A DNA stretch of 64,000 nt from Nannocystis sp. RBIL2 (lineage in GTDB: Bacteria; Myxococcota_A; Polyangia; Nannocystales; Nannocystaceae): positions 972,311-1,036,310 of the forward strand of contig NZ_JAPNJW010000001.1 of the NCBI RefSeq assembly GCF_026626745.1, given 5' to 3'. The notes beneath the pieces are model-generated. The model was given only the letters and a program-made list of their open reading frames with translations. It was not told the origin of the DNA and searched no databases. Shown here one piece after another: positions 76 through 63,367 of the stretch. The position numbers and the translations under genes are program-made. Each line of letters begins with the position of its first letter. Positions within the stretch are counted from its first letter, which is position 1.

Positions 76-180
76 GCACATGCCCTCGAGGCCATGACTC
101 GAAGAACATGTCCATATGGGCATGCTCTTCGGAGCATGTCCTCGTCGACATGCTCCATGCGTCATGCCAGCGCGCTCATC
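76..180. repeat. GGACATGTCC-family 14-bp phased array (8 units)
   Basis: CATG at 78, 93, 107, 121, 135, 149, 163 (plus 156). Units are CATGYYC + 7 nt. Lies 3' of the beta-helix gene. Confidence 0.8.
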
Positions 181-351
181 ATCCATCCCACTCGCGCTCT
201 CGCCTGCTCATGCACCGACGCTCGCGGCCGGAAACAAAGGTGCATATATGTACCTTTGTCCGCCCAAACCAGCCCTTACGGCTCAAAAATTACCTCTTGT
301 CTCGCGAGCTCTCACCCGCGCCGCCGAGCGCCGGCCCGTCGACAGCCCGCC

Positions 352-2172
352 TCAAGACGGATCGCAGCCGAACGGCGGCAGCGTCGCCGCCGGCGTCTCG
401 GCCCCGCCCGTGACGCGCTCGGACGTCACGCGCGAGCCGCAGGCCCACGTCAGCGTCGGGCTGAAGCAGCGCACGCAGGACACGTCGCGGACCACAGCGT
501 CGACGCCCATGGCGACGTTGATCGCCCCCTCGCCGCCGGCGTTGCGCAGCTGCACGTGCTCGAACAGGTTGCCGCGGGCCTTCTCGTACAGGCGGATCGC
601 GTCCCACGTCCCGCGGCGATCGGTGGTCCCGAAGATCTGCACCGGGCGTTCGGCCGTGCCCTCGACGCGCAGCGAGCCGCCGCCGAACTCGCCGACCCCG
701 AGCGAGAAGCCGTCGTGGACGCGCAGCTTGGCGCCGGCGCGGATCGTCAGCGTCGCCTGGTTGTCGACCGAGACCGGGCGCTTGACCTCGATCGGCACCC
801 CGAAATCGTGCCACACCGCGTCCTTGCTGACCTCGCCGCCCTCGACCTGGACCGTCGTCGCCGCGTCGAGCTTGTTCTCGGCCGGGATCATCCCGAACAG
901 CTGCGGACTCACGTCGAAGGCCGGGTGCGAGCGCTCGAACGTGTTGTCGCGGAACTCGCCGAGGCGGACGTTCGCGCCCTGGAGCGTCACCCCGCCGCCG
1001 TTGTCGCGGAACGTGCAGCCCTTCGCGCTGAGGCGCGCCTCGTTGTTGGCGTAGACCACCCCGCGGTCGGAACGCTGGCCGCCGTACTCGAACACCACGT
1101 TGCTGAAGCTCGCGGTGGCCGAGCGGTAGAGGTTGACCCCGCGCCACGCGTGCGACGTCTCGCGCGTCGCCGACGTCAGCACGATCGGCTCCTTGCCCGC
1201 CGCCTCGGCGATGAGCGCCGCCGGGTGGTCGTAGCCGACCGTGAAGTACGCGTCGTCGTCGAACTTCAGGACTGTCCCCGGGGCCAGCTCGAGCATCGCC
1301 TCGTGCTTGTCGTCGGGGCCCTCGATCTCGATCACCCCGCCGATCACGAACGGCACCTTCGGCACGTCCCAGCGGGCGCGTTCGCGGATCATCCCGCCGA
1401 GCACGTGGATCACCGAGTCGGGCGGGAACGTGTTGTCGGGCGTCACCGACCCGGCCGAGCGGGCCGGCAGCAGCAGCGCCGGCGAGCTCACGCGCTCGAG
1501 CCGGTTGCCCTTGAAGCTGCTGACGTGGCCCTTCGACGTGACGTGGACCGCCACGTTCTGGCTGTCGCGCACCGTCGAGCCGTCGATCTTCACGTCGGTC
1601 GCCTGCACGTAGATCGCCCCGCGCAGGTCCGTACCGGCGAACTCGAGCACGAGCCCGGCGATCTCCGAGCCGTCGGCGTGGTCGTACAGCGCGATCCCCT
1701 TCCACGCCCCCGGCTTGGCCTGATCGCCCGCGGCCGTGAAGCGGACCGGCGACTCGGGCGTGCCGCGCACGTGCAGCGTCGCCGGGCGCTCGAAGCCGAC
1801 CGCCAGCTCGGCGTCGGGCATGAATTGCAGGGTCACCCCTGCCTCGATCGTCAGCGACCCGTTCTCGATCCGGTAGCCCGGGTGGACCGTCACCGACTTG
1901 CAGGCCGAGCCGATCACGCGGTCGACCTGCTCCGGCTCGCGGAGCGCCTCGGGGCAGTCGCTGACCTCCGGCCGGCGCGGCGCGGGCGCAGGCGCCTGCA
2001 CCCGGTCGGGCATGTTCGGGTTCGCCTCGACCTTCTGCGACTTCTGCTCGTCCGGTCCGCAAGCGAGCGCGACGGCCACGCACCCGAGCCCGATCTGGCG
2101 CAGGCCCGCGCCGGGACGTCGGCCACGCCGGCGCGCGGGCTCGGCAGCGGACGCAGCGGCGCGGGGACGCAT
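352..2172 (-). CDS. Right-handed parallel beta-helix repeat lipoprotein (pectate-lyase-like fold), secreted
   Basis: The 1259-aa six-frame ORF 352..4131 is real only in its C-terminal 606 aa. An ATG at 2172 starts MRPRAAAS..., followed by a signal/lipobox-like stretch (VAVALAC). Repeated beta-helix rungs are present (NVAVHV, GVVYANNEARL, GGVTLQGANVRL). The upstream 650 aa are Ala/Gly/Arg junk typical of a GC artifact. Confidence 0.6.
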   Translation of the reverse strand: MRPRAAASAAEPARRRGRRPGAGLRQIGLGCVAVALACGPDEQKSQKVEANPNMPDRVQAPAPAPRRPEVSDCPEALREPEQVDRVIGSACKSVTVHPGYRIENGSLTIEAGVTLQFMPDAELAVGFERPATLHVRGTPESPVRFTAAGDQAKPGAWKGIALYDHADGSEIAGLVLEFAGTDLRGAIYVQATDVKIDGSTVRDSQNVAVHVTSKGHVSSFKGNRLERVSSPALLLPARSAGSVTPDNTFPPDSVIHVLGGMIRERARWDVPKVPFVIGGVIEIEGPDDKHEAMLELAPGTVLKFDDDAYFTVGYDHPAALIAEAAGKEPIVLTSATRETSHAWRGVNLYRSATASFSNVVFEYGGQRSDRGVVYANNEARLSAKGCTFRDNGGGVTLQGANVRLGEFRDNTFERSHPAFDVSPQLFGMIPAENKLDAATTVQVEGGEVSKDAVWHDFGVPIEVKRPVSVDNQATLTIRAGAKLRVHDGFSLGVGEFGGGSLRVEGTAERPVQIFGTTDRRGTWDAIRLYEKARGNLFEHVQLRNAGGEGAINVAMGVDAVVRDVSCVRCFSPTLTWACGSRVTSERVTGGAETPAATLPPFGCDPS

Positions 2173-2247
2173 CGGCCGAGCATGCCACGCACGTGCGCAG
2201 ACACGCAAGGCGGACGAGCGGCCCTTCGGCGGTGCTAGACTTCGGCC

Positions 2248-3033
2248 GTGGCCTCCCGCAAGCCCGCGCCCGCCGTCACGGAGCCGACCATCCGTGTCCG
2301 CCGGATCCACCGCCGCGACCTCAACAAGGTGTGGGAGTTCCTCAAGCGCGTGTTCCGCTCGGTCAACCGCGAGACCGTCGAGTACCAGCGCCCCCGCACC
2401 AAGACCCGCTTCCTCGAGATCTACGAGGAGGAGGGCATCGAGCAGCTGCTGTTCGAGATCCACGAGGGCGACGCCCCGGTGATCGTCGGCTACGCCGAGT
2501 GCGCCTACGAGGTCATCGGCTCCGACAATTGGATCAACGAGCGCTACTTCGAGAGCCGCGACATGCGCCCGCTGTTCGTCGAGGAGATCGCCATCCACCC
2601 CGACTTCCAGGGCCGCGGGATCGGCAGCTTCGTCATCGAGCAGCTCGAGCACCTCGCCCGCGTGCGCGGCTGCACGCACCTCGTCCTCGAGGTCGCCGCC
2701 AACAACAAGCGCGCGCTCCAGTTCTACCGCGCCCGCAGCTTCTCCCAGATCGACGCCGCCATCTTCCTGGCCAAGAAGGTCGTCAGCGAGCCCGAGCTGC
2801 TGCCGCCCCGCACCCTCCGCAACAGCGGCCTCGAGGCGGCCCCGTCCGACCCGCCCGAGGCCGGGCCCGAGCCCGAGGCCGAGGAGGGCTCCGAGGACAT
2901 GTCCGAAACGACAGGTGCGGAAGCACCGGACCTCGAGGACATGCCCGAAGAGGCAGACGAGCCCGAGCCCGAGCCCCCAGCGCCCCCGGCCAAGCCCGCC
3001 CGCGCCCGCCGCTCGCGCCCCCGCAAGGCCTGA
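2248..3033 (+). CDS. GNAT family N-acetyltransferase with acidic Pro-rich C-terminal tail
   Basis: Acetyl-CoA binding motif region IAIHPDFQGRGIGSFVIEQL; the C-tail EDMSETTGAEAPDLEDMPEE is encoded by partial copies of the GGACATGTCC element. Confidence 0.75.
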   Translation: MASRKPAPAVTEPTIRVRRIHRRDLNKVWEFLKRVFRSVNRETVEYQRPRTKTRFLEIYEEEGIEQLLFEIHEGDAPVIVGYAECAYEVIGSDNWINERYFESRDMRPLFVEEIAIHPDFQGRGIGSFVIEQLEHLARVRGCTHLVLEVAANNKRALQFYRARSFSQIDAAIFLAKKVVSEPELLPPRTLRNSGLEAAPSDPPEAGPEPEAEEGSEDMSETTGAEAPDLEDMPEEADEPEPEPPAPPAKPARARRSRPRKA

Positions 3034-3117: not shown

Positions 3118-3960
3118 GTGCGTCGCGTCCGCTGCTGTGTTAGCGTCCGCCGCGTGACCGAGCCGGCCCCAGCCCCGCACATCGAGGCCCGCGGCCTCGG
3201 CGTGCAGTTCGCGGGCGGCGTGCAGGCCCTGAGCGGCCTCGACCTCGTCGTCCGCCGCGGCGAGCTGCTCGCCCTCATCGGCCCCTCGGGCTGCGGCAAG
3301 TCGACCTTCCTGCGCGTGGCAGCCGGCCTCGCGCCCGCCAGCGCGGGCACCATCACAGTCGCGGGCGAGGCCCCCGAGCGGGCCCGGGCGCGCCGCGCGG
3401 TCGCCTTCGTGTTTCAGGATCCGACCCTGCTCCCGTGGCGCAGCCTGCACGCCAACGTCCGCCTCCCGCTCGAGCTCGCGCGCGCCCCGAAAGCCGAGCA
3501 GACCACCGCCGCCGACGCCGCGCTCGCGCTCGTCGGCCTGTCGGAGTTCGCCGCCGCCCCGCCGACTGCGCTCTCGGGCGGCATGAAGATGCGGGCCTCC
3601 CTGGCCCGCGCCCTCGTCACCCGGCCCGAGCTGCTCCTGCTCGACGAGCCGTTCGGCGCCCTCGACGAGCTCACGCGCGAGCGGCTCAACGACGAGCTGC
3701 TGCGCCTGTGGGAGCGCGACCGCTTCACCGCCCTGGCCGTCACCCACAGCGTCGCCGAAGCGGTCCTGCTCGGCGACCGCGTCATCGTCCTCTCCGGCCG
3801 CCCCGGCCGCGTGGTCGCCGACATCCCGATCGCCCTGCCGCGCCCGCGCCGCGCCGCCCTGATCGGCAGCCCCGAGTTCGCGGCGATCGCCGCCGACGTC
3901 CGCGCCCACTTGCGCGCCGCCGCCCCGCCTGACCCTTCGGACCTGCCTGTTCGGACCTGA
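3118..3960 (+). CDS. ABC transporter ATP-binding protein, NitT/TauT (SsuB/TauB-like) family
   Basis: Walker A GPSGCGKST, ABC signature LSGGMKMRASLARAL, Walker B LLLLDEP. The probable true start is the in-frame GTG at 3154 (VTEPAPAP). Confidence 0.85.
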   Translation: MRRVRCCVSVRRVTEPAPAPHIEARGLGVQFAGGVQALSGLDLVVRRGELLALIGPSGCGKSTFLRVAAGLAPASAGTITVAGEAPERARARRAVAFVFQDPTLLPWRSLHANVRLPLELARAPKAEQTTAADAALALVGLSEFAAAPPTALSGGMKMRASLARALVTRPELLLLDEPFGALDELTRERLNDELLRLWERDRFTALAVTHSVAEAVLLGDRVIVLSGRPGRVVADIPIALPRPRRAALIGSPEFAAIAADVRAHLRAAAPPDPSDLPVRT

Positions 3961-4020
3961 CCTCTCCGCCTGTCCCTTCGCACCTGTCCCTCCACACAAG
4001 TCCCTCGGGACAGCTCTCCC
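3931..4020. repeat. Degenerate CCTGTCC-variant 14-bp phased array
   Basis: gaccTTCGgacctgCCTGTTCggacctgaCCTCTCCgCCTGTCCcttcgcaCCTGTCCctccacaCAAGTCCctcgGGACAG. Overlaps the ABC ATPase stop and the ATPase-permease spacer. Confidence 0.6.
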
Positions 4021-4129: not shown

Positions 4130-4918
4130 ATGTCCCTCGCATCGGCCGCTCGAGCCGCGCTCCCGCCGCTCCTCGTCTTCCTCGCCCTCCTCGGCCTGTG
4201 GCAGCTCGCCTGCAGCGCCCTGGCGCTGCCGGCCTACCTCGTGCCGACCCCGGCCGAGGTCGCACGCGAGGCCGCAGCCCACGTCGGCGAGCTCGCCCAG
4301 GCCGCGCTGCTGACCGCCCTCGGCGCGCTCGGCGGCCTCGGGGCCAGCCTCGTCGTCGGCGGCCTGGTAGCAGTCCTGTTCTCGCAGTCGCAGACGGCGG
4401 CGCGCAGCCTCTACCCGTACGCGATCTTCCTGCAGACCGTCCCGATCGTCGCCGTCGCCCCGCTGATCGTCGTGTGGTTCGGCACCGGCCTGCAGAGCGT
4501 CGTCCTCACCGCCGCGATCCTCAGCGTCTTCCCGATCATCACCAACGGCACCACCGGCCTCGTCCGCGTCGACCCGCAGCTGCTCGAGCTGTTCGCCATG
4601 AGCGACGCCTCGCGCCTGCAGCTGCTGCTCAAGCTGCGCCTGCCCGGCTCGCTGCCCTACTTCGTCGCCGGCGCCAAGATCAGCGGCGGCCTCGCGGTCA
4701 TCGGCGCCATCGTCGGCGAGTTCTTCGCCGGCTTCGGCGCCGACGAGCTCGGCCTCGGCGCCCTCATCCTCCAGACCTCCGGCCGCCTGCAGACCGCCTA
4801 CCTGTTCGCCGCGATCTTCACCGCCACCCTGCTCGGCCTGCTGCTGTTCGGCCTCGTCGCCCTGCTCGGCGAGCTCGCCCTCCGCCGCTGGCGCGGCCGC
4901 GAGCTCGCAGTCTCCTGA
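4130..4918 (+). CDS. ABC transporter permease (NitT/TauT family, SsuC-like)
   Basis: Six TM helices and an EAA-like loop; immediately downstream of the ATPase. Confidence 0.85.
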   Translation: MSLASAARAALPPLLVFLALLGLWQLACSALALPAYLVPTPAEVAREAAAHVGELAQAALLTALGALGGLGASLVVGGLVAVLFSQSQTAARSLYPYAIFLQTVPIVAVAPLIVVWFGTGLQSVVLTAAILSVFPIITNGTTGLVRVDPQLLELFAMSDASRLQLLLKLRLPGSLPYFVAGAKISGGLAVIGAIVGEFFAGFGADELGLGALILQTSGRLQTAYLFAAIFTATLLGLLLFGLVALLGELALRRWRGRELAVS

Positions 4919-4924
4919 CCTTTC

Positions 4925-4995
4925 GCGCATGTCTCCTCCGACATGCCCCATCCTTCATGCACTCGAGGACATGCTCGAACGAGCATGCTCCCTCA
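4925..4995. repeat. GGACATGTCC-family 14-bp phased array (5 units) between convergent genes
   Basis: CATG at 4927, 4942, 4956, 4970, 4984. Confidence 0.8.
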
Positions 4996-5448
4996 ACCTC
5001 GCCGCGGCACCACCGGTCCGACCGCGCGCACCCGCAGCGCGGTGAGCGGCGCCCCGCTGACGCGGTCGACCAGCACCGGCTCGATCGGCAGCCCCGTGGC
5101 GGCGTCCTCGAGCACTGTCGGCGGTGGGTCTTCGCGGGCGAACTCGTCGCCCCACTGCATCAGAGTCACGATCACCGGCCGCAGCCCCCGGCCCTTCGCC
5201 GTCGGCACGTACTCCTCGCGCGGCGGATGATCCTGATAGGACCGGCGCTCGAGGATTCCCGCGGCGACCAGGTGCTCCAGGCGGGCCGTCAACGTGGCCC
5301 GCGGGATCTGCAGCCGCGCCTGAAACGCCTCGAAGCGCGTCACCCCGAGCAGCGCGTCGCGCACGAGCAGCAGCGTCCACGGGTCACCGACGACGTCGAG
5401 CGCCCGCGCGATCGAGCACTGCATCCGGTCGAGTCGCTTGCGCCGCAC
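4993..5448 (-). CDS. HxlR family transcriptional regulator
   Basis: Winged-helix HxlR signature (ARALDVVGDPWTLLLVRD ... REEYVPTAKGRGL); the start may be the internal Met (MQCSIARAL, ~5424). Confidence 0.8.
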   Translation of the reverse strand: MRRKRLDRMQCSIARALDVVGDPWTLLLVRDALLGVTRFEAFQARLQIPRATLTARLEHLVAAGILERRSYQDHPPREEYVPTAKGRGLRPVIVTLMQWGDEFAREDPPPTVLEDAATGLPIEPVLVDRVSGAPLTALRVRAVGPVVPRRG

Positions 5449-8021: not shown

Positions 8022-8169
8022 ACCGGCGGGCGGAGCCCACGTGCCGCGCTCCGGTCGGGTCGCACTCACCTGCGGGGAAGCGCACCACGCCGCGAGAGAC
8101 CGTCTTCGCGGAGCTCCGCCGCGCGAGCCCGCGAGCTTCTGCCTCGCACTGCCCGCCGGACGCCACACT

Positions 8170-8230
8170 TCACATGTCCCCGAGGACATGCTCTTTTATT
8201 CATGTCCTCGAGACCATGCCCCCATGGATG
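8170..8230. repeat. GGACATGTCC-family 14-bp phased array (4-5 units) upstream of SBP gene
   Basis: CATG at 8173, 8187, 8201, 8215, 8223; palindromic core ATGTCCccgaGGACAT. Confidence 0.8.
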
Positions 8231-8291
8231 CGCCCCGTGGCACGGTCGAGGCCGCTGGTGCGTCCGTGGCGCTCGGGTGTACGCTTCCGGC

Positions 8292-9293
8292 ATGCGCGCT
8301 CCGCTCCGACCGGTCCCGCCGCGCCCGCGGTTCGGCGCCCTCGTCCGCCTGCTCGTCGCCTGCCTCGGCTTGCTGCTCGTCACCTGCGGCCGCCAGCAGG
8401 ACTCGCAGCAGGTGCGGATCGCCCTCAACTGGTTCCCCGAGGTCGAGCACGGCGGCTACTTCGCCGCCCTCGTCCACGGCTACTACAAGGAAGAGGGCCT
8501 CGACGTCGAGCTCGTGCCCGGGCGGCCCGACGCCCCGGTCCTGCCGCAGGTGGCCGCGGGTCGCGTCCAGTTCGGCATCGCCGACGCCAGCGAGATCCTG
8601 CTCGCGCGGGCCCAGGGCGCCCCGGTGGTCGCGCTCGTCCCCGGCCTGCAGAAGAGCCCGCGCTGCATGATGGTCCACGAGGCCTCGGGCATCACCGACC
8701 TCAACGACCTCCAGACCGGCAGCGTGCAGCTGAGCGTGCGCGAGCCGTTCGCCAGCTTCCTGCGCGCCGAGTATCGCTGGCCCGAGGCGGTCCAGGTCGT
8801 CCCCTACAGCGGCAGCGTCGCCCCGTTCCTGCTCGACCCCAAGGCCGTCCAGCAGGCCTACGTCTTCAGCGAGCCGATCATCGCCGAGTCGCAGGGCGCC
8901 AAGGTCCGCTGCATCCTCGTCGCCGACCTCGGCTTCAACCCCTACGCCAGCGTCCTCGTCACCTCCGAGTCGCTGCTGGCGAGCCGCCCCGAGCTGGTCG
9001 CCCGCGTCGTCGACGCGACCCTGCGCGGGTGGGAGCAGTACCTGCGCGACCCGAGCGCCGCCAACGCCGAGATCCGCGCCCGCAACACCGAGCTCAGCCC
9101 CGAGATCCTGGCCAAGGGCGCCGCCGCCCTCAAGCCGCTGGCGGCCCCCGAAGGCGGCACGATCGGCGCGATCGACCCGGCCCGCTGGAAGACGCTCGCC
9201 GATCAGCTCGTCGACCTCGGCCTCCTGAAGGCCGGCGCCGTCGACCCGGCCACCGCCTACAACCTCGAGATCGGCCGCAAGCCGGCGAAGTAG
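8292..9293 (+). CDS. ABC transporter substrate-binding protein (NMT1/THI5-like, SsuA/ThiY-type) with signal peptide
   Basis: ATG at 8292 gives MRAPLRP...LLVACLGLLLVTCG with a signal/lipobox; NMT1-like periplasmic domain. The ORF track start at 8202 lies inside a repeat array and is unlikely. Confidence 0.8.
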   Translation: MRAPLRPVPPRPRFGALVRLLVACLGLLLVTCGRQQDSQQVRIALNWFPEVEHGGYFAALVHGYYKEEGLDVELVPGRPDAPVLPQVAAGRVQFGIADASEILLARAQGAPVVALVPGLQKSPRCMMVHEASGITDLNDLQTGSVQLSVREPFASFLRAEYRWPEAVQVVPYSGSVAPFLLDPKAVQQAYVFSEPIIAESQGAKVRCILVADLGFNPYASVLVTSESLLASRPELVARVVDATLRGWEQYLRDPSAANAEIRARNTELSPEILAKGAAALKPLAAPEGGTIGAIDPARWKTLADQLVDLGLLKAGAVDPATAYNLEIGRKPAK

Positions 9294-9304: not shown

Positions 9305-9362
9305 TTCGGGCATGCTCCGAGCGACATGTCCTGCAGGACATTTCTTTAAAGACATGCCCGAT
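9305..9362. repeat. GGACATGTCC-family 14-bp phased array (4 units) downstream of SBP gene
   Basis: CATG at 9311, 9325, (CATT 9339), 9353; ATGTCCtgcaGGACAT; AT-rich spacer ttctttaaaga. Confidence 0.8.
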
Positions 9363-11014: not shown

Positions 11015-11035
11015 CCCGCGGAGACAGACCCGATC

Positions 11036-12238
11036 GTGCCGCTCCCCCAGGAAGCACTCCCCGACTTCGCCGCCGTCTACCGCGCGAACTACGGCTTCGT
11101 CTGGCGCACCATCCGGCACCTCGGCGTCGATCTGGCGCGGGTCGACGACGCGGTCCAGGACACCTTCCTGGTCGTCTACCGCCGCCTGCCCGAGTTCGCC
11201 GGGCGTGCCGCGGTGCGCACCTGGTTGTTCGAGATCGCGCGGCGCATCGCCAGCCGTTACCGGCGCAGCGCCGCGCGCGAGGAGCCGCGCCGCTGCGCTT
11301 TGAGCGAGGCCGAGGTCCTCGCCCCCGCGGTCGAGGCCCCCGTGGAGCAGGCCGAGGCCGCCGCGCTCCTCCAGGGCTTCCTCGACGGCCTCGACCGCGA
11401 TCAGGCCGTCGTCTTCGTCATGACCGAGCTCGAGCAGTGGCAGGCCCCCGAGATCGCCGCCGAGCTCGGCGTCAACCTCAACACCGTCTACTCGCGCCTG
11501 CGCGCCGCTCGCCGCGAGCTCGACCGCATGGTCCGCCGCCTCGACGCCCGCGACCGCCGGGCCCGGCCGCGCCAGGGCGCCCACGTGCTCGCCGCCCTGG
11601 TCGTGGTCGGCCCGCCCTGGCCGCCGCCGTGGCGCCTGGCCGCCGCGCGCGATCCGGCTGTCGTCGGGGACATGCTCGCAAAGACATGGTCGATAAGCCA
11701 TGTCGCAACGCCGGCCGCGATCGCCGGCGGCAGCCCGGTCGTCGGCCTCTCGGTCGCCAGCGCCGGCCTCTTCGCAGTGCTGGCGTTCGGCCGCCCTGCA
11801 CCCGAGCCGCCGCAGTCGGTCGTCGCCGCGGCCCACGAGCCCGCGCCCGCTCAGTCGCACTCGCCACCGCAGTCGGTCGCGCTCGCGGCCGCAGCCGCAC
11901 CGATCCCGCCCGCCTCCGCCACGGCCGCTCCCCCCGCGCCCGCGCGACGCTCGACCCCTCGCGGCGAGGAGCCCTCGCTGGCCGCCGAGCTCACCCTCGT
12001 CGAGTCGATCCGCGCCGCCCTGCTCGCCGCCGACCACCGCACCACCCTCGAGCTGGTCGCCCGCCACCAGCGGCGCTTCCCCGCCGGCGTGTTCGCCCAG
12101 GAGACCGCCGCCGCCGCCATCGAGGCCCGCTGCCGCCTCGGCGACCACGACCGCGCCCGCCGCGACGCCGCCGCGTTCGTCGCCCGCTGGCCCGCCTCCG
12201 CCCTGGCCCCGCGGGTGTCCGCGTTGTGCCGCTCGTGA
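11036..12238 (+). CDS. ECF (sigma-70 family) RNA polymerase sigma factor, fused in-frame to an anti-sigma-like extension
   Basis: Sigma region 2 (DAVQDTFLVVYRRL, RTWLFEIARR) and region 4 (TELEQWQAPEIAAELGVNLNTVYSRLRAAR) lie in the first ~175 aa. After that, with no stop, come a predicted TM helix (SPVVGLSVASAGLFAVLAF) and an Ala/Pro-rich tail. A repeat element copy sits at the junction (11665-11710). Confidence 0.65.
   Translation: MPLPQEALPDFAAVYRANYGFVWRTIRHLGVDLARVDDAVQDTFLVVYRRLPEFAGRAAVRTWLFEIARRIASRYRRSAAREEPRRCALSEAEVLAPAVEAPVEQAEAAALLQGFLDGLDRDQAVVFVMTELEQWQAPEIAAELGVNLNTVYSRLRAARRELDRMVRRLDARDRRARPRQGAHVLAALVVVGPPWPPPWRLAAARDPAVVGDMLAKTWSISHVATPAAIAGGSPVVGLSVASAGLFAVLAFGRPAPEPPQSVVAAAHEPAPAQSHSPPQSVALAAAAAPIPPASATAAPPAPARRSTPRGEEPSLAAELTLVESIRAALLAADHRTTLELVARHQRRFPAGVFAQETAAAAIEARCRLGDHDRARRDAAAFVARWPASALAPRVSALCRS
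11665..11710. repeat. GGACATGTCC-family phased array (3 units) inside ECF sigma-fusion ORF
   Basis: CATG at 11671, 11685, 11699. Confidence 0.65.
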
Positions 12239-12271: not shown

Positions 12272-12395
12272 GCCGACCTGTCCCTTGCGACCTGTCCATT
12301 CATATCATGTCTGAAGGGACACCCGTCCCTCCAGACATCTCATCCCACGACCGGCGCCACGCGACCTCGCCTTGCATGTCCCTGCGGACAGGCAC
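12272..12395. repeat. Degenerate GGACATGTCC/CCTGTCC-family array in the sigma / FG-GAP intergenic region
   Basis: gaCCTGTCCcttgcgaCCTGTCCattcatatCATGTCTgaagGGACAcccgtccctccagaCATCTCatcc ... gCATGTCCctgcGGACAGG. Confidence 0.65.
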
Positions 12396-13944: not shown

Positions 13945-14005
13945 CACAGTCATGTCCATAAATACATGTCTTTTATGACATACTCATAAAGACATGTCAT
14001 GGAGC
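13945..14005. repeat. GGACATGTCC-family 14-bp phased array with AT-rich spacers
   Basis: CATG at 13951, 13965, (CATA 13979), 13993; spacers ataaata / ttttatga / ctcataaaga. Confidence 0.8.
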
Positions 14006-14219: not shown

Positions 14220-14292
14220 AAGGACATGTCGGACAGGGCATGTCGATAGAGACATGCCCGAATCGACATGTCCCCATCGACATGCCCTCGAG
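14220..14292. repeat. GGACATGTCC-family 14-bp phased array (5 units) abutting the SNF2 stop codon
   Basis: CATG at 14225, 14239, 14253, 14267, 14281, exactly 14 bp apart. Confidence 0.85.
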
Positions 14293-14293: not shown

Positions 14294-17245
14294 TCACTCG
14301 AGCAGCGCCAGCAGGTCGCTGCGGGTGATCGCCGCCGCCCCCGCCGCGTCTTCGAGCGCCGCCTCGGCGATCGCCCGCTTGCGCGCCTGCAGGGACAGGA
14401 TCCGCTCCTCCACCGTCTCCTCGGCCACCAGCCGGTGCACGATCACCGGGCGCTCCTGGCCGATGCGGTGGGCGCGGTCGGCCGCCTGGTCTTCGACCGC
14501 GGGGTTCCACCACGGGTCGAGCAGGAACACGTGGTCGGCCGCCGTCAGGTTGAGGCCCGTGCCGCCGGCCTTGAGCGAGATCAGCATCACCGGCGGCCCG
14601 TCCGGGTCCTGGAACCGGTTCACCACCCCGGCGCGATCGCGGGTCGAGCCGTCGAGGCGGCAGAACGGCAGCCCCGCCGCCTGCAGCCCCGGCTCGCACA
14701 GGTCGAGCAGGCTGGTCCACTGCGAGAACACCAGCGCCTTGTGGCCCTCGGCGATCGCCTCGGTCAGGGTCTCGAGCAGCAGCTCGAGCTTCGACGAGCG
14801 CGTGGCCGACTGGCCCGGCACCAGCGCCGCGTGGCAGGCCGCCTGGCGCAGGCGCAGCAGCGCCTCGAGGGCCGCGAGCACCCCGCCGCCGGCCTGCAGC
14901 TGGGCCACCACTTCCTCGTGCGTGGCCGCCCGCACCGCGTCGTAGACGGCCCGCTCGCGCGCGTCGAGCGTGCAGCGCAGCACCACCTCGGTGCGCGGCG
15001 GCAGCTCGCGCGCCACCTCTTGCTTGCGCCGGCGCAGCACGAACGGCGCGATCCGCCGCCGCAACGCCCGCGCCGCCGCCTGGTCGCCGTCGCCGATCGG
15101 CCGGCCGAAGCGCTCCTGGAAGTCCGCGCGCCCGCCGAGCAGCCCCGGGTTGATGAAGTGGATCTGGCTCCACAGCTCGTCGAGGCGGTTCTCCACCGGC
15201 GTGCCCGTCATCGCCAGCCGCCAGTCGGCCTGCAGCCCGAACGCCGCCCGCGCGACCTGGCTCTCGGGGTTCTTGATCGCCTGCGCCTCGTCCAGGATCA
15301 CCGCGTCCCAGCGCTCGCCGGCCAGCGCCTCGGCGTCGAGCCGCAGCAGCGCGTAGCTGGTGAGCGTGAGGTCGGCCTGCGGATCGAGGCGTCGCTTCGG
15401 CCCGTGATACACGCTGACCCGAAGGCCAGGTCGGAACTTCTCCGCCTCCGCCGCCCAGTTGTGGATCACGCTGGTCGGCGCGACCACCAGAGTCCGGCCT
15501 CGCACCGCGCACAGCGCCTGCAGCGTCTTGCCGAGGCCCATGTCGTCGGCCAGCAGCGCGCCGAGCCCGGCCTCGCGCAAGAACGCCAGCCAGTCGACGC
15601 CGCGCCGCTGGTACGGCCGCAGCTCGACCTGCAGGTCGGCCGGCAGACGCGTCTCGGGGATCGCCTCGAAGCCCTCGACCAGCGCCGCCAGCCCCGCCAG
15701 CTCGGGCGGCGGCGGGTGGTCGAGCGCGCGGCACAGCTCGGCCAGCGCCGGCCGGGCCCACGTCGCCGGCTCGCCGCCCTGCTCGCGCGCCGCCAGCAGC
15801 AGCGTCACCTCCGAGCCGAACCGCGACAGCCAGTCGACCGGCAGCGGCGCGACCCCGCCGTCGTCGAGCACCACCTCGGTCGCGCCCGCCTGCCACGCCT
15901 CGAGCACCCGGCGCGCGTCCGCCTGCGAGACATGTCCCGAAGAACCTGTCTCGAAGGCAATGCCCAATCGGCCACCCTCGCCGGCGATCATGCGGGCCGC
16001 CAGCGGCCCCTTGCGCACGAACTCGCGGTGCGACTCGCCGGCGATCTCGCCGCCCTCGAACCCGCGCAGCGCCTCGGCCAGGCCGACCGCCAGCGGCCCG
16101 ACGGCGCTGGTGGTGCGCCCGAACTGCAGCCCGAGCTCGCTCAGCCGGCGCACCAGCGACGCCTCGGCGAGCGCGTCGCGGCGCGGCACCTCGCGCCCGC
16201 GGATCACCAGCCGCCCGGCCTCGACCCGCGCCGCCTCGGGTGTCCCGTAGACCAGGACCGGAAGGACAGACATGCCCGTGCCCGCGCGCCCGACTTCGAA
16301 CAGCACCCGCGGTCGCGCGTCGGACAGCACCGGCAGGCGGTCGGTCTTCTCCTTGAAGGCCTTGACCCGCGCGCGCAGGGCCGGGATGGCCTCGGCCACC
16401 AGCTCGCCCGCGCGCTCGGGCGAGAACTGCAGCCCCACGCGCAGCTCGGCCGCCTCCTTGGGCCCGATGCCGCCGTTGTCGAAGCAGCGCAGCACGTCGC
16501 CGCACAGCACTACCCCGCTGGCCGCGAACACCTCGGTGATCGTCGGGTCGCGGACGATGTACAGGCGGAAGCCCTTGCCGCCCTCGAACGCCGCCACCCG
16601 CCCGTGGTAGCCGGCCGGCTCGGCCCCGGCCTTGATCCTCTTGCCGTCGAGCGTGATGTCCTCGCAGCCGGCCAGCGCCGGCAGCAGCTTGCGCGTGATC
16701 ACCGGCGCCAGCGGACCGCGCTTGTAGATCCCCAGCGCCCCCTCGACCTCGAAGTCGGCCGCGGTCGCCACGATCCCCGGCCCCTCGACCTTGCCGCCGG
16801 TGATCGCCGCCAGGCTGTAACCGAGCGGCGTCTCCTTGCTCTCGGGACCTGTCCCTTCGGACACACGCACCCGCACCAGCTCGAGCGCGCCCTCGGCCCG
16901 GCGCAAGCGATACCCGACCCGACCCGCGCGCTCGCTGCCGCGCGGCATCGCCTCACCGGCCTCGACCGCGCGCTGGAGGGCGATCGTCGCCGCCGCCACG
17001 TGGAAGCAGCACTCGCCGGCGTCGTCGCAGTCGCAGCTCCACTCGGCGTCGCCGGGGTACAGCGCGACCGTCGGGCTCTTGCCCGCGCCCTTGATCGCGA
17101 CCCGCAGGACCACCTCGTCGCGCTCGCGCCGCACCCCCGCGACGGCCCCCGCGCGCGCGAGCTCGACCCCGCGAGACCAATCGCGGGGGCTGCACGCGGC
17201 GCGCACTGCATCGAGGAGAGCTCGCACGGGGCGGTCGCCTAGCAC
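14294..17245 (-). CDS. SNF2-family DEAD/DEAH helicase with N-terminal SWIM zinc finger
   Basis: SWIM CxC...CxH ([15 protein letters not shown]); SNF2_N ([20 protein letters not shown]); helicase C ([39 protein letters not shown]). Confidence 0.85.
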
Positions 17246-18771: not shown

Positions 18772-19005
18772 CTACGTCCCCTTCGGCCCCACGACCTCGC
18801 CGGTCTCCGGATCGACAGGGAACCATGCGCCCGCGACCTCGTGACAGGCGTGCCTCAGCTCCGCGTAGACCTCGGGGGTGATCCACGTGTCGACCTCCTG
18901 CGGGTCGCGCCAGTGCATCGGGTTGTGGGCGAACGCGTTCAGGTGCTCGAGCAGGCGATAGAGCCGTTCCGCAGCCTGTTCATCCAGACATGCTCTAACG
19001 GCCAT
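18772..19005 (-). CDS. Small hypothetical protein (77 aa)
   Basis: Native-like composition (W, H, Y, F, E rich): ...HNPMHWRDPQEVDTWITPEVYAELRHACHEVAGAWFPVDPETGEVV. The N-terminus overlaps repeat array 18972-19065, so the true start may be internal. Confidence 0.35.
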   Translation of the reverse strand: MAVRACLDEQAAERLYRLLEHLNAFAHNPMHWRDPQEVDTWITPEVYAELRHACHEVAGAWFPVDPETGEVVGPKGT

Positions 19006-19065
19006 GCCCCTTCGAGCATGCCCTTTCGAGCATGCCTATCAGGACATGCCTCAAGCGACAGGCGA
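18972..19065. repeat. CATGCC-variant 14-bp phased array (6 units)
   Basis: CCTGTTC 18975; CATG at 18989, 19003, 19017, 19031, 19045. Confidence 0.85.
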
Positions 19066-24938: not shown

Positions 24939-27158
<2,220 letters not shown>

Positions 27159-29714: not shown

Positions 29715-29770
29715 CGGCCCGGTGAGGCCGGGCCCTGCAGGTCCCGAAGGACTGGGCCCGAAGGACTGGG
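29715..29770. repeat. 15-bp tandem repeat (GGGCCCGAAGGACTG x ~2.5) upstream of tRNA-Gln
   Basis: ...gtcccgaaggactgggcccgaaggactgggcccgaagaattgccc; preceded by the hairpin ggcccggtgaggccgggcc (29710-29728). Confidence 0.5.
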
Positions 29771-30204
29771 CCCGAAGAATTGCCCGTGCTCTGGGGATCG
29801 CAGGAACGCCCCCCAGGGCGCGCGCTTTATAGGATTAGCCCAAAGGCGCTGTCAACCGTCCCACCAGCGCCGAACCCGACATCCGGGCGCAGGGGCCACG
29901 TCGGACGGGTCACACGGCGGCGTCTCGCGGCGGCACCTCGCGGCGGCACCTCTTCTGGCGCCTCCTGCGCCTGCCCCTGACGACCTGGTCTGAGGGCCCG
30001 GCGGATGGTGCGGTGAATTGGGGGTCCGAGGCCCGGTCCCGCGTCGCGGACGTCCGGCGAATCTCGTGAGTTCTCTTGCTCGGCAGCGGGGCACAACTCG
30101 GGTGGGATCGTGGGTCTGGGGCCCGTGCGAGGGTCCCGCTTTGTCCCACAGCCACCTTTACCCGTGTGCTAGGTTGCGGGCCTCGCAGGAGACGACCAAT
30201 TCCC

Positions 30205-42409: not shown

Positions 42410-42419
42410 CTTGATAGCG

Positions 42420-42492
42420 AGTGTCCAAATGGACATGTTTGAATCAGCATGTCCATCCGGACATTTCTGAAAGGACATGTCCCGATCCGCAG
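42420..42492. repeat. GGACATGTCC-family 14-bp phased array (4-5 units) downstream of HxlR
   Basis: CATG at 42434, 42448, (CATT 42462), 42476; ATGTCCatccGGACAT; AT-rich spacers. Confidence 0.85.
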
Positions 42493-42642: not shown

Positions 42643-44487
42643 TCAGCGCACCTCGGCCGCCACCCGCAGCACTCCCGGCTGCGGGTAGCTGATCGCCAGA
42701 TCGGCCAGCTCCAGCCCCCCGTCGCGCAGCGCTCGCGTGCCGTCGCGGAGCAGCGCCCGCACCTGGATCCCCGGCAGTCCCGCGGCGCCTGGAGCCAGCA
42801 GCGCGTCGAGCCGGGCCTCGACGTCGCCCATCTCGAGCAGCGCGGCGAAGCACGGCCACAGCGCCCCCGCGCGGGCGCACGACAGGCGCAGGCGGTCGAT
42901 CGTCCCGGCCAGCGCAAGGCGCCCGCGCCCCGCGTCCCAGTGCGGGCGCACGAACCCGCGCCCTGCGACCAGCACCTCGCCGGGGTCCTCGCCCTCCCTG
43001 CCGGTCAGCCCCAGCCGCAGCCCGGCGACAGTCAGGGCCCAGCCGTCACCTGTCCCCGGGGACAGCGACGGCGGCAGCCGGACCTCGATCTCCGCCAGGC
43101 CGAGCGTCGTCCACTCGCCGAGCGCCTCGTCGACCCGCTCGACCCACTGCGCCCGCCCCATCAAATCGCCGAGCAGCCCGTTGGCGGTCCACGCGTCGAG
43201 CAGCGCGTCGACAGTGTCGAGGCTCAGCTCGACCTCCGCGTCGGCAGTCGGCGCAACCGGCCGCAGCGGCGGCAGCTCGAGCCCGTGCCGCGCCGGCCCC
43301 GGGATGGCCGCCAGCCGCGTGCGCACCCGGCTCGCCTCCTGGCTGGTCTTCGGGTCAGGTTTATCTGGCCGTACGGACAGGTGGGCCGCGATCCCGCCCG
43401 ACTCGATGGCCACCGCGCAGAACGCCAGGGTCGCCCGCGAGCGCGGCTCGCCGACGATCAGCTCGGCGCGCTCGGGGATCAGCGGGATCGCGCTCGCCAC
43501 CGCCAGGGCCGCGGTCAGCTGCGTCTCGACCTCCTGCCGCGCGCGCCGGTCGATGTAGCCGTCAGCCAGCGCGTAGCCGGCCAGCGCCCCGAGCGGCGCC
43601 AGCGGCCCCGTCACGAGCGCCCCCAGCCCCGCCGCGCCGAGCGTCGCCCGCGTGCGCAGCGTCCCCGTGAACTCGACCGGCCCGAGCGAGGCCAGGCGCA
43701 CGCCCAGCTGGCGCGGCCCGGCCACCCGCACCTCGAGCGCGCCGGACACCGCGATCCGGTGCTCGCCGGCCAGCGCCACGCGGAACCACAGCGCGTCGCC
43801 CCGCAGCGTCACGCTCGCCTCCTCGAGCGTCGTCCCCGGCCCGAGCAGCCCGATCGACGGCGCCGCCGCCAGCAGCTTCTCACGCAGCGGCGGCAGCACC
43901 AGCCGATCGATCGCCCTCGCCGCCACCCGGACCCCCGCGCCGCAGCCCGGCGAGTCGTCGTAGCGGGCGCGGAACGGCCCGACCAGCGCCGCGTCGGTCG
44001 CCACCTCGGCGCCGCCCTGCCGCGGCAGCTCGACCTCGATCAGCCGCAGCCCCGGCGCGTCGCCCAGCGCGACCGAGAGTGTCCCATCCGACATGTTCTC
44101 ATAAACATGTCCCTCAGGACCGCTGCCACTCATCCCGTCGTCACGCCCAGCAGCCTCTGCGACTCGGGGCATGTCCGCGAGAGCATGTCCTCTCGAATCA
44201 TCGCGCGCCGCGAACATGTCCTTTTGCGCATGTCCTTCAGGACCGGCGCGGACCTCCCCGTCGACCCGCACCACCGCCCGCGCCGCCAGCTCCGGCGGGA
44301 CCCCGCGCCCCGACCAGCGCCCGTCCGCCGCCGGCGCGTGCGGGCTTGCGACCTCGACGCGGAAAGGCTCGGCGGCGGCCGCCTCGATCAGCGCCCCGCG
44401 CCCGGCGGCCAGCAGCGCACCCGCCAGCGCCAGGCCGGCCAGGCCGGCCATCGACGCGAGCCGCCACTTATCCTCCGCGAGCGCCAT
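42643..44487 (-). CDS. Hypothetical membrane-anchored protein downstream of the MlaFE-like transporter (possible MlaD/MCE analogue), carrying a 171-bp in-frame repeat-array insert
   Basis: N-terminal TM anchor MAGLAGLALAGALLAAG. Codons ~78-135 are encoded by GGACATGTCC array 44085-44255 (GHAQKDMF...GHVYENMSDG). An alternative start is ATG 44084 (MSDGTLSV). Confidence 0.5.
   Translation of the reverse strand: MALAEDKWRLASMAGLAGLALAGALLAAGRGALIEAAAAEPFRVEVASPHAPAADGRWSGRGVPPELAARAVVRVDGEVRAGPEGHAQKDMFAARDDSRGHALADMPRVAEAAGRDDGMSGSGPEGHVYENMSDGTLSVALGDAPGLRLIEVELPRQGGAEVATDAALVGPFRARYDDSPGCGAGVRVAARAIDRLVLPPLREKLLAAAPSIGLLGPGTTLEEASVTLRGDALWFRVALAGEHRIAVSGALEVRVAGPRQLGVRLASLGPVEFTGTLRTRATLGAAGLGALVTGPLAPLGALAGYALADGYIDRRARQEVETQLTAALAVASAIPLIPERAELIVGEPRSRATLAFCAVAIESGGIAAHLSVRPDKPDPKTSQEASRVRTRLAAIPGPARHGLELPPLRPVAPTADAEVELSLDTVDALLDAWTANGLLGDLMGRAQWVERVDEALGEWTTLGLAEIEVRLPPSLSPGTGDGWALTVAGLRLGLTGREGEDPGEVLVAGRGFVRPHWDAGRGRLALAGTIDRLRLSCARAGALWPCFAALLEMGDVEARLDALLAPGAAGLPGIQVRALLRDGTRALRDGGLELADLAISYPQPGVLRVAAEVR
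44085..44255. repeat. GGACATGTCC-family composite array (171 bp = 57 codons) in-frame within a CDS
   Basis: CATG at 44092, 44106, 44170, 44186, 44215, 44229; palindromes ATGTCCctcaGGACC and ATGTCCttcaGGACC. Confidence 0.8.
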
Positions 44488-46081: not shown

Positions 46082-46150
46082 CTCAACCTGCCCCTTCGAC
46101 CCTGTCGCTTCGGACCTGGCCCTTCACACATGTCGCAAAGTCAAGACAGA
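46082..46150. repeat. Degenerate 14-bp phased array (CCTG/CATG at 46087, 46101, 46115, 46129, 46143)
   Basis: aaCCTGCCCcttcgacCCTGTCGcttcggaCCTGGCCcttcacaCATGTCGcaaagtCAAGACAG. Confidence 0.6.
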
Positions 46151-55171: not shown

Positions 55172-55270
55172 CTGCGGGCATGTCCGCAGGGACATGTCCC
55201 GCAGACCATGAGTAGAAGGGCATGTCCGTGAGGACATGCCCTTCGGCGCATCGAAGGGCCTACCTCAGCG
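55172..55270. repeat. GGACATGTCC-family 14-bp phased array (6-7 units) between convergent genes
   Basis: CATG at 55189, 55203, 55217, 55231, 55245, (55259 CATC). Two perfect GGACATGTCC decamers 14 bp apart. Confidence 0.9.
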
Positions 55271-62406: not shown

Positions 62407-62423
62407 AGTAACGTTCGCCGCGC

Positions 62424-63239
62424 ATGCGGCCCGACGAGGCGTTCTACCTCCCGGACGGCGACTCAGACCGCGCCGCCCGCTTCATCGCCACCCCCTGGAC
62501 CCGCGGCCCCTGGGACCTGCGGCTGCAGCACGGTGGCCCGCCGACTGCTCTCATGCTGCGCGCCATGGAGCGCCGCGCGGGCGAGCTCGGTGACTTCGAG
62601 CTCGCCCGCGTCACGACCGACTTCCTGCGCCCGGTCCCGATCGCCGCCTGCGACCTCGTCGTCGAGCCGCTGCGCGCCGGTCGGCAGGCGCTCGGCCTGC
62701 AGTGCACCCTCGCGGTCGACGGCCGCGCGTGCGCCCGCGCGAGCGCCTTGTTCATCCGCCGCGCCGCCGTCCCCGTCCCGCCCGCGCTCGCGCCCGCGGA
62801 CGACCCGCTCGACCCGCGCGGCCTGCCCGAGGGGACCTTCGACTTCTTCCCCGACCCCGTCGGCTACCACACCGCGATGGAGCTGCGCCTCGGGACATGT
62901 CCTCTGGAACCTGGCTTCGGGGACGGGTGGCTGCGCCTCCGCGGTCGACTGGTCGCCGGCGAGGCGCCGAGCCCGGCCCAGCGGGTCGCCGTCGCCGCCG
63001 ACGCGATCAACGGCGTCGGCTTCGCCCTCGAGTTCGCCCGCTGGACCTTCATCAACGCCGATCTCACCATCTACCTCCACCGCGCGCTCGAGGGCGAGTT
63101 CGTGCGCCTGCGGACCCATCACGTCTCGCAACCCGACGGCCGCGGCCTGGTCGACGCCGAGCTGGGCGACCACCGCGGCCCGATCGGCCGCGCGCTCGAG
63201 GCCCAGGTGCTCGCGCCGCGCGAACCTTCGGACGGTTGA
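62424..63239 (+). CDS. Acyl-CoA thioesterase II-like (double hotdog) family protein
   Basis: TesB-like motifs (RGPWDLRLQHGGPPTALML, FFPDPVGYHTAMELRLG); contains a short in-frame element copy (LGTCPLEPGFGDGW). Confidence 0.6.
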   Translation: MRPDEAFYLPDGDSDRAARFIATPWTRGPWDLRLQHGGPPTALMLRAMERRAGELGDFELARVTTDFLRPVPIAACDLVVEPLRAGRQALGLQCTLAVDGRACARASALFIRRAAVPVPPALAPADDPLDPRGLPEGTFDFFPDPVGYHTAMELRLGTCPLEPGFGDGWLRLRGRLVAGEAPSPAQRVAVAADAINGVGFALEFARWTFINADLTIYLHRALEGEFVRLRTHHVSQPDGRGLVDAELGDHRGPIGRALEAQVLAPREPSDG

Positions 63240-63240
63240 T

Positions 63241-63367
63241 ACGAGGCGACGGCCCCGCAGTCGACCGCCCGCCCCCGCACCTGTCCCCGAGGACAGTCTA
63301 TTCAATTGGGGCGAGGCGACGCCCCGCAGTCGGCCGTCCGCCTCGCACCTGTCCCGGAGGACTGCCG
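63241..63367. repeat. ~70-bp direct repeat x2, each ending in a CTGTCCnnnnGGACAG palindrome
   Basis: gaggcgacggccccgcagtcgaccgcccgcccccgcacctgtccccgaggacag vs gaggcgacgccccgcagtcggccgtccgcctcgcacctgtcccggaggactg. Confidence 0.7.

Follow-up and report, generated by a model that had tools for sequence, protein, structure and literature searches.

Base-exact arrays of a 14-bp palindromic unit past the stop codons of Nannocystis genes

Among described repeats, the repetitive extragenic palindromic (REP) sequences of bacteria, with the bacterial interspersed mosaic elements (BIMEs) and the REP doublets forming hairpins (REPINs), come closest to the family reported here. REP cores are conserved while their spacers are never identical, and tandem clusters are known (PMC3337134). 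REPs and REPINs persist vertically at orthologous sites (PMC3337134, PMC3116915, bioRxiv 10.1101/2021.07.10.451892), and in a REPIN the REP copies of one genome share about 95% identity (PMC3337134, Table 2). In E. coli, REPs lie between convergent genes, and one REP acts both as a partial terminator and as a stabiliser of mRNA (bioRxiv 10.64898/2026.03.23.713779). The present analysis concerns a 64,000-nucleotide stretch of Nannocystis sp. RBIL2 (contig NZ_JAPNJW010000001.1, positions 972,311 to 1,036,310), referred to below as the window. It carries arrays of two to seven head-to-tail units, each unit consisting of the palindrome GGRCATGYCC and a free 4-nt spacer, 14 bp in all.

The Nannocystis arrays resemble REP/BIME and REPIN sequences in being high-copy, lineage-specific extragenic palindromes found in 3′ untranslated regions (UTRs) and convergent junctions, in combining conserved cores with never-identical spacers, in occurring as singles, pairs and regular tandem clusters, and in persisting vertically at orthologous sites. 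They differ in their construction. A REP unit is an imperfect palindrome of about 20–40 nt that folds on itself, whereas the Nannocystis unit is 14 bp long with a 10-bp perfect-palindrome consensus, so that a hairpin requires two units and any neighbours can pair. Unlike in REPs, the spacing is fixed to the base and the flanks of the core are about 68% conserved; unlike REP/BIME sequences, copies also occur in frame inside genes. A REPIN consists of two inverted REPs forming one long hairpin, whereas the Nannocystis arrays contain two to seven equivalent units, some of them folding in REPIN-like fashion as a single long hairpin (14220–14289). The family would work like a REP cluster but stands outside the REP/RAYT (REP-associated tyrosine transposase) family as defined.

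A first-pass annotation, made from the letters of the window alone, had described CATG recurring every 14 bp at numerous loci. This recurrence proved to be far above chance. The window is 71.6% G+C and contains 242 CATG tetranucleotides. Thirty-three pairs of these lie exactly 14 bp apart, 23 pairs 28 bp, 18 pairs 42 bp and 7 pairs 56 bp apart, the remaining distances in the 4–70 bp range being represented by 0–4 pairs apiece. There are no pairs at 13 bp and only one at 15 bp; in three Nannocystis dnaB loci, 43 pairs are spaced at 14 bp, one at 13 bp and 0 at 15 bp. Three or more phased CATG units form a chain at ten places, with starts at 79 (seven units), 4928, 8173, 9311, 11671, 13951, 14225, 18989, 42434 and 55179. 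A profile scan based on a position-weight matrix, and requiring at least three units in register, identified 16 arrays in the window and 0 in every one of 30 second-order Markov shuffles. Motif counts were compared with those in dinucleotide-preserving shuffles of the window: GGACATGTCC occurs 6 times against 0.06 expected, TGTCC-N4-GGACA (with at most one mismatch) 41 times against 1.5, and RCATGY 97 times against 54.5, the surplus of the last being accounted for by the arrays.

The logo compiled from 374 units reads nn-G(.69)G(.68)R-CATG-Y C(.67)C(.68)-nn and is palindromic. Positions outside GGRCATGYCC are nearly unconstrained, and the central two positions of the spacer are about 58% A+T compared with 28% in the genome. 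The unit description and the AT-rich spacers of the first-pass annotation are thus both borne out. An array can equally be read as a string of abutting TGTCC-N4-GGACA dyads; this dyad, which also occurs singly and in some cases inside genes, is an addition to the earlier description. The GGRCATGYCC core equals RRRCWWGYYY, the half-site of eukaryotic p53 response elements. The likeness was set aside as coincidental because no bacterial p53 homologue is known.

Placement of the arrays was analysed in 376 kb of Nannocystis DNA containing 116 arrays. Genes were called from third-position G+C and the calls checked against Pfam and against the annotation of syntenic loci. Arrays lie outside called genes in 95 of 116 cases. 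Forty-nine stand between convergent genes, 27 between co-directional genes beside the stop of the upstream gene, and only 5 between divergent genes; 14 lie at locus edges and 21 inside called genes, most of these being weak three-unit matches. An array is present in 77% of the intergenic regions between convergent genes, in 28% of those between tandem genes and in 11% of those between divergent genes, and at many convergent junctions nothing but the array separates the two genes. Among arrays of at least four units, 75% begin within 30 bp of the facing stop, compared with 6% upon random intergenic placement (p ~3e-39). The REP/BIME-like preference for gene 3′ ends and convergent junctions, noticed originally in the window, therefore holds in this larger sample. 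Occasionally the stop codon continues the phase of the array as a TGACC pseudo-unit; across 61 arrays this amounts to a mild peak only, with 12 at offset 12 mod 14. Automatic gene calling is misled by the arrays. At 10001–11065 of the N. pusilla Na p29 locus L111, the annotation extends an FG-GAP gene through a five-unit array until it overlaps with SNF2.

Blocks of N. radixulma (L007), N. pusilla (L108 and L111) and N. exedens (L109) are collinear with the window, whose DNA is 86–93% identical to the N. radixulma and N. exedens blocks. Six intergenic junctions, each compared in three to five genomes, carry arrays at corresponding positions. Orthologous arrays differ in unit number and, largely, in their spacers. 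In pairwise alignments of these six junctions, identity reaches 92% at CATG positions, a figure somewhat inflated by the preference of aligners for setting CATG on CATG; the phased CATG is nonetheless present in each genome, independently of this artefact. Identity is 67% for the three flanking bases on each side, 54% for spacer bases and 60% for other intergenic DNA. The divergence of spacers is similar to or greater than that of other intergenic DNA, and it involves far fewer gaps (0.14 gapped positions per mismatch, against 0.97 in other intergenic DNA). Cores and phase appear to be held by selection, or else by a homogenising process that ignores the spacers.

Several observations bear on the age and dynamics of the family. 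Units of the same array agree at 4.13 of 10 positions, those of different arrays at 3.98 of 10, and spacers are almost all different, the commonest 10-mer between CATGs occurring 3 times among 262. The small difference between these two values, together with the near lack of repeated spacers, indicates that the arrays are old. Recent tandem duplication was rejected as their origin on the same ground, neighbouring units being no more alike than unrelated ones. Comparison of orthologous loci revealed presence/absence at one junction, where N. radixulma has an array and N. punicea none. Conserved termini and target-site duplications were not found at array edges. In N. pusilla (L079, 7690–8000), a 71–72-bp module including a three-unit array is repeated in 3.4 copies with 94% identity.

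The motif extends well beyond the window and is found genus-wide in Nannocystis. One genome per species was scanned for 185,579 species with a query of four phased CATGYY units. At least 107 stretches matched; among the matches listed, 39 are from Nannocystis (N. exedens, N. pusilla, N. punicea, N. radixulma, N. bainbridge and one metagenome-assembled genome, MAG), and these 39 are the only ones that combine the palindromic core with variable spacers. The other matches listed consist of perfect microsatellites with a 7- or 14-bp period and unrelated sequence, except for isolated matches (e.g., L085) that have variable spacers but no palindrome and look like chance. The syntenic 21 kb around dnaB were also compared in graded relatives. 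The three Nannocystis genomes contain 7–10 arrays each; a MAG with 84% DnaB identity has one weak array; the loci at 72%, 69% and 66% DnaB identity, the last being Pseudenhygromyxa, have 0 arrays and 0 TGTCC-N4-GGACA dyads. No such arrays were found in 2.9 million viral contigs, where 21 of the 22 matches are simple tandem repeats and the exception (L124) has variable spacers and a non-palindromic core. The window derives from a Nannocystis close to N. pusilla. An exact look-up of one window protein gave no match, and the best database matches to window proteins are 90–98% identical; the AsmA-like protein is 95% identical to that of N. pusilla and DnaB is 98% identical to the N. bainbridge cluster. 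Array density is about one per 4–5 kb, which, extrapolated to genomes of 11–13 Mb, probably corresponds to roughly two to three thousand arrays each. Rfam, searched with the window, returned one tRNA only at gathering score and no family for the arrays. In the literature, we found no 14-bp or palindromic repeat described for Nannocystis or myxobacteria, no RAYT or REPIN for Myxococcota, and no paper on the array family itself.

The loci of the window are as follows (ORF, open reading frame).

74..171: seven-unit array, all CATG, at the window edge; RNA fold z-score -4.6.
2893..2948: weak four-unit match (two CATG) within an acetyltransferase-like ORF (2248-3033; identity from synteny).
3928..4019: CCTG-type phased array beginning at the TGA stop of an ABC_tran gene (end 3960); direct repeats with little hairpin potential, period 14 in Tandem Repeats Finder; kept in two N. 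pusilla assemblies (L108, L111) and in N. exedens (L109).
4923..4992: five-unit array forming the entire convergent junction between BPD_transp (stop 4918) and HxlR (stop 4993) genes; arrays stand at the same place in five genomes.
8168..8223: four-unit array between an aldo-keto reductase gene (stop 8021) and an NMT1 gene, with a T-rich spacer after the first hairpin.
9306..9361: four-unit array (three CATG and one CATT), 15 bp past the NMT1 stop (9293), with a hairpin and a T-rich spacer.
11666..11707: three phased CATG units (42 bp) within an ECF sigma-factor gene (11036-12238), encoding GDMLAKTWSISHVA; kept in four species.
13946..14001: AT-rich four-unit array, 6 bp past the stop of an FG-GAP gene (13942).
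14220..14289: five-unit array, 7 bp past the stop of an SNF2 helicase gene (14294, minus strand); a single 27-bp hairpin, fold z-score -7.9.
15926..15967: weak three-unit match (one CATG) within the SNF2 gene.
18970..19053: six-unit array (five CATG) abutting the stop of a PNP_UDP_1 gene (19051, minus strand).
29740..29781: three tandem 14-bp units GGxCCCGAAGGACT, about 35 bp from a tRNA gene (29634-29705, minus strand); GTCC-N4-GGAC dyads without CATG.
42415..42484: five-unit array (three CATG) at a convergent junction, 8 bp past the stop of an HxlR gene (42409).
44073..44244: three mini-arrays of two to three units each within an AsmA-like gene (42646-44487, minus strand).
46082..46137: four-unit CCTG-type array directly past the stop of a PHP-domain gene (46173, minus strand), before the start of an ABC/MlaE gene.
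55174..55243: five-unit array at the convergent junction 55163/55265; two hairpins of 13-14 bp, fold z-score -8.4.
62877..62918: weak three-unit match (one CATG, including GGACATGTCC) within ORF 62424-63239.
63279..63363: two isolated CCTGTCC-N4-GGACAG dyads at the convergent junction 63239/63369.

Of the eleven intervals originally listed as strict arrays, ten indeed hold chains of at least three units; the eleventh (44085-44255) corresponds to the three mini-arrays of the AsmA-like gene. Four further loci had been called degenerate. Two of these (3931-4020 and 46082-46150) are phased at 14 bp around a CCTG core, and the other two are not arrays: 12272-12395 contains scattered units and one dyad, and 63241-63367 a direct repeat with one dyad per copy, the isolated dyads lying at 12377, 63282 and 63350. 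This direct repeat, in the segment 63242-63369, is 68–70 bp long, the pieces being 83–93% identical and each copy ending in one dyad. Loci added by the present analysis are the weak matches at 2893-2948, 15926-15967 and 62877-62918, the CATG-less repeat at 29740-29781 and about 20 exact dyads standing alone, about half of them inside genes. Searches based on CATG miss the CATG-less repeat, which may be a diverged family member; it is the only such feature in the housekeeping stretch at about 20–40 kb, where no other arrays occur.

Two observations concern intragenic dyads. A perfectly conserved dyad at 17941, with a near-dyad at 17963, lies in an ORF without Pfam match (17646-18707, minus strand); two overlapping stretches covering 17881-18014 show 96–98% nucleotide identity among four genomes, one of them N. 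exedens, which in a nearby SNF2 stretch compared in this manner is only 90% identical. In the hypothetical ORF 9653-11014, a 54-bp tandem repeat (10094-10244; 2.8 copies, 89% matches) has an exact TGTCC-N4-GGACA dyad in every copy, indicating that the dyad was copied as part of an 18-codon coding repeat. Orthologues of this ORF in L108, L109 and L111 also show related dyads.

Systems other than REPs share single traits with the arrays. The DNA uptake sequences (DUS) of Neisseria and the uptake signal sequences (USS) of Haemophilus are likewise over-represented genome-wide, inside genes and as inverted hairpin pairs downstream of them, and a link between terminators and uptake sequences has been discussed (PMC1852404). 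Unlike the Nannocystis unit, DUS and USS are asymmetric 9–12-mers, not self-palindromic and not set in phased multi-unit arrays. We know of no link between the Nannocystis arrays and DNA uptake. The met-boxes of MetJ, the heptads of omega and the ParR/ParG centromeres are operator arrays of ribbon-helix-helix repressors in which short palindromic or heptad sub-sites abut in strict register; two inverted heptads, TGTCCnn and nnGGACA, are likewise one way of reading the Nannocystis unit. Operator arrays of this type are bound cooperatively, one dimer per sub-site. On a given replicon they are found at a single promoter or centromere or at a few, in contrast to one site per 4–5 kb past stop codons. 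Rickettsia palindromic elements (RPEs) are, like the 24-nt and 123-nt gains in the AsmA-like gene considered below, palindromic repeats accommodated in frame within genes; they are single elements of about 100–150 bp, as opposed to phased 14-bp units that are mostly extragenic. Finally, as with intrinsic terminators, hairpins are predicted just past the genes, with symmetry at convergent junctions, and in two arrays a T-rich stretch comes after the hairpin. The arrays differ from such terminators in that most lack a U-tract and that the stem sequence is common to the whole family. Arrays also have no defined length, terminal inverted repeats or target-site duplication such as characterise miniature inverted-repeat transposable elements (MITEs).

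Nine arrays fold as RNA with z-scores between -2.8 and -8.4. Adjacent cores form a stem of 7–10 bp and the spacer a tetraloop, some arrays giving one long hairpin. Most of the folding energy comes from the palindromic core itself: real arrays reach -31.2 kcal/mol and arrays rebuilt with pooled spacers -28.4 kcal/mol (mean z -0.48, n=69). Starting from the placement, conservation, lineage restriction and dynamics observed above, we infer transcription, hairpins in vivo, an effect on RNA and a partner. The interpretation that we rank first, at about even odds, is that each array constitutes a REP/BIME-like stack of tetraloop hairpins in the 3′ UTR that serves, together with a partner, as a bidirectional 3′-end barrier or terminator. 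The location of array starts, 2–30 nt past stop codons, suggests that arrays are transcribed as 3′ UTRs. Any two adjacent cores could then pair into a 7–10-bp stem closed by the 4-nt spacer, and the RNA would be a stack of interchangeable hairpins, identical from either direction. Like E. coli REPs, such a stack would block 3′-to-5′ exonucleases and limit transcription running past the end of a unit, at convergent junctions from either side. Hairpin stability requires neither so invariant a core nor the near absence of 13- or 15-bp spacing, which points to a sequence-specific partner reading the cores in register. This candidate partner would most likely be a lineage-specific protein. The family probably spread duplicatively in the ancestor of Nannocystis and was then retained.

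One strand asymmetry was observed. When the arrays of the window and of loci L001–L105 are oriented by the upstream gene, T outnumbers C at position +4 (95 vs 37), while the mirror position -1 is A in 58 cases and G in 66. Scored per array the asymmetry is 21 against 5 (p=0.0004); it is found in both orientation subsets, comes mostly from convergent-class arrays and is weak in co-directional ones. G-U compared with A-C mismatches also favour the sense strand (51 vs 28 and 66 vs 29). This skew was rejected as evidence for an RNA role, since positions within the unit that are not expected to pair show it too; it traces to the single position pair -1/+4, mostly from convergent-class arrays.

Several observations weigh against the REP-like reading. 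Sense and antisense strands fold equally well (23 vs 21 arrays, p=0.42), and there is no excess of T over A on the sense strand (676 vs 663); the highest T count per 8 nt is slightly greater in sense (4.41 vs 3.95, p=0.04) with total T about equal to A. Only two arrays in the first 20 kb resemble a terminator hairpin followed by a U-tract. Covariation between half-sites is weak (0.45–0.59 observed vs 0.40–0.52 expected), and that of pairs within units and between neighbours is weak or absent. The CCTG-type arrays at 3928-4019 and 46082-46137 are phased and conserved, yet have little pairing potential. Canonical terminators with a GC-rich hairpin and a U-tract exist elsewhere in the window: on the minus strand at 24800-24941 and 23380-23528, past the H+-pyrophosphatase gene and gene 23526-23972, a long GC hairpin is followed by UUCGCUUUUUGU or UCGCUUUCUUUC. 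Their presence makes the arrays a separate class and not the organism's only means of termination. Toleration of arrays and dyads inside genes argues against strong termination, and the strict 14-bp spacing is left unexplained by hairpins alone, which tolerate variation in loop length. The unit is also shorter than the 20–40 nt of a REP, and the 374-unit logo lacks the GTAG-type head of REPs. A GTAG-type tetranucleotide at the foot of the palindrome is a feature of RAYT substrates.

The main rival, which was among the hypotheses of the first-pass annotation and to which we accord a real but clearly smaller chance, holds that the array acts as double-stranded DNA. A lineage-specific dimer would bind GGRCATGYCC or TGTCC-N4-GGACA cooperatively, one dimer per 14 bp, and the resulting nucleoprotein block at gene ends would terminate transcription as a roadblock or act as an insulator, form a topological barrier or organise the nucleoid, the hairpin potential of the RNA being a by-product of the palindrome. 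The near absence of 13- and 15-bp spacings speaks for this possibility, as do the spacers, which are saturated with substitutions and yet carry gaps about 7-fold more rarely than other intergenic DNA. Four features are explained by a protein reading double-stranded DNA no less well than by an RNA structure: the base-exact phase; conservation of the core sequence itself, beyond pairing; the CCTG-type arrays, non-palindromic direct repeats that hold phase without hairpin potential; and the isolated intragenic dyads, which are perfectly conserved. The palindromic pooled logo and the similar folding of sense and antisense strands are also consistent with it, and there is precedent in ribbon-helix-helix proteins, such as MetJ and omega, that bind tandem 7–8-bp sub-sites in register. 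On the other hand, the binding protein is hypothetical, and the tight placement past stops fits a transcript role or tolerated insertion sites better. Nor should a symmetric dimer give the strand asymmetry at +4/-1 relative to gene direction, and real arrays are slightly richer in spacer complementarity than rebuilt ones.

A bolder variant of this rival, which we consider doubtful, sees the arrays as docking tracks for a polymerising protein specific to Nannocystis, laid down one dimer per 14 bp and forming nucleoprotein blocks at the ends of transcription units. The repeat would have propagated itself genome-wide and become a roadblock system for termination, insulation or confinement of supercoils. 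Such a system, if true, would have no described bacterial counterpart.

Ranked third, and unlikely, is the proposal that the arrays are selfish, non-autonomous DNA of REPIN or MITE type, mobilised by a transposase encoded elsewhere (e.g., a RAYT-like Y1 enzyme) and without host function, their accumulation past stops merely reflecting sites where insertion is harmless. The first-pass annotation had listed, as one of three hypotheses, mobile or recombinogenic DNA whose partner, RAYT-like or a transposase, is encoded elsewhere. That the repeat has proliferated in the past is shown: the family is lineage-restricted and very abundant, one orthologous junction shows presence/absence, and the 71–72-bp module attests to recent tandem amplification. 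Conserved cores, non-identical spacers and long vertical persistence are all known from REPINs (PMC3337134, bioRxiv 10.1101/2021.07.10.451892).

Units have also been gained in the AsmA-like gene. Protein and DNA alignments identified an in-frame gain of 123 bp (41 amino acids) present only in the window and in N. pusilla. Two of the three mini-arrays belong to it, and third-position G+C falls from 0.95–0.98 to 0.61 in the mini-array stretch. The edges of the gain are two diverged copies of the same 42-bp array and it holds another two-unit array, an arrangement that looks more like duplication or recombination than cut-and-paste. The same gene shows a 24-nt gain with a three-unit array in Nannocystis genomes, a sister MAG being without it; the corresponding extra residues, about eight, are found in all aligned Nannocystis-type homologues (N. 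pusilla and N. radixulma by name) and not in three distant homologues. Both gains, lineage-specific and in frame, count in favour of selfish DNA. The AsmA-like gene is the one clear case in support of the in-frame intragenic copies noted in the first-pass annotation; two other intragenic matches turned out to be ordinary conserved coding sequence. The SNF2 match (15926..15967) was rejected as an insertion, being present in sister lineages too; the ECF sigma match (11666..11707) is conserved in all four Nannocystis genomes compared, no sister lineage being among them.

Other elements of the mobile-element proposal fared less well. The scarcity of identical spacers, together with adjacent units that are no more alike than others, gives no sign of recent copying, and near-identical copies are missing. 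Arrays lack conserved termini and target-site duplications and vary in unit number, and the 123-bp gain, as said, does not resemble cut-and-paste. Neutral relics would lose CATG as they lose their spacers, and the observed 92% against 54% conservation disfavours the proposal. There is no transposase among the annotated genes of the window. A RAYT/Y1 transposase was found neither among 20 window proteins searched with Pfam nor in the annotated syntenic loci, no genome-wide search having been aimed at RAYT; a RAYT gene is usually single-copy per genome. The three leading readings may overlap, selfish spread having been followed by retention for a function at the DNA or RNA level.

A role as a CATG or RCATGY methylation or restriction landmark, with arrays as clusters of sites for a methyltransferase or a methylation reader, had also been put forward and is effectively excluded: CATG is the invariant unit centre and RCATGY a known type II recognition sequence (NspI), but nothing else speaks for such a role, as the GG/CC flanks and the 14-bp phase are conserved without being needed by a 4–6-bp enzyme site, RCATGY outside the arrays is neither avoided nor enriched (about 49 against 54.5 expected), and CCTG-type and CATG-less variants hold phase. 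Chance, base composition or coding periodicity, which would do away with the feature altogether, accounts for some three-unit intragenic matches and is otherwise already refuted by the shuffles, by a period not divisible by 3 and by the recurrence of the same repeat family at orthologous sites in several genomes.

A few features of the window stand apart from the arrays. About 60 bp past the first array, in DNA of 72% G+C, positions 233-258 form an AT-rich 26-bp near-palindrome, ACAAAGGTGCATATATGTACCTTTGT, with two mismatches, which looks like an operator; its exact arms are shorter than the seed of the repeat finder, which did not list it. Within 8224-8300, a segment of some 55 nt ahead of the NMT1/THI5-like gene (…GGTCGAGGCCGCTGGTGCGTCCG.GGCGCTCGGGTGTACGCTTCCGGCATGCGC) is near-identical in five genomes (window, L007, L108, L109 and L111), the remainder of this intergenic region not being alignable. 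The conserved segment may be a leader or a regulatory element; an Rfam search of 8100-8400 returned nothing at E-values up to 1. Between the aldo-keto reductase and NMT1 genes of N. pusilla (L111, about 4860-5050) there are five to six copies of CGCGAGCCTGCGAGCCTCCGCCCC, a repeat not present in the window. The caller based on G+C found no gene in the 2.3-kb stretch 39800-42000. At the syntenic loci L138 and L140, an HTH_3/HipA toxin-antitoxin pair and a small ORF lie between the transhydrogenase beta and HxlR genes, and ORF 40161-41438 (plus strand) is likely HipA; its atypical codon composition suggests later acquisition. Throughout the 64 kb, C clearly outweighs G on the plus strand (38.5% C vs 33.0% G), a strong negative GC skew.

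How REP sequences function, spread and persist are long-standing questions that have been studied almost only in gamma-proteobacteria. The Nannocystis arrays, with a 10-bp core, a base-exact phase and unconstrained spacers in myxobacterial genomes of 12–13 Mb, provide an independent and structurally minimal case of the REP type, found here in a single genus of soil myxobacteria and absent from the syntenic DNA of three sister lineages. Should transcripts prove to be terminated or stabilised by the arrays, these would supply compact, bidirectional 3′-end parts for engineering myxobacterial producers of natural products.

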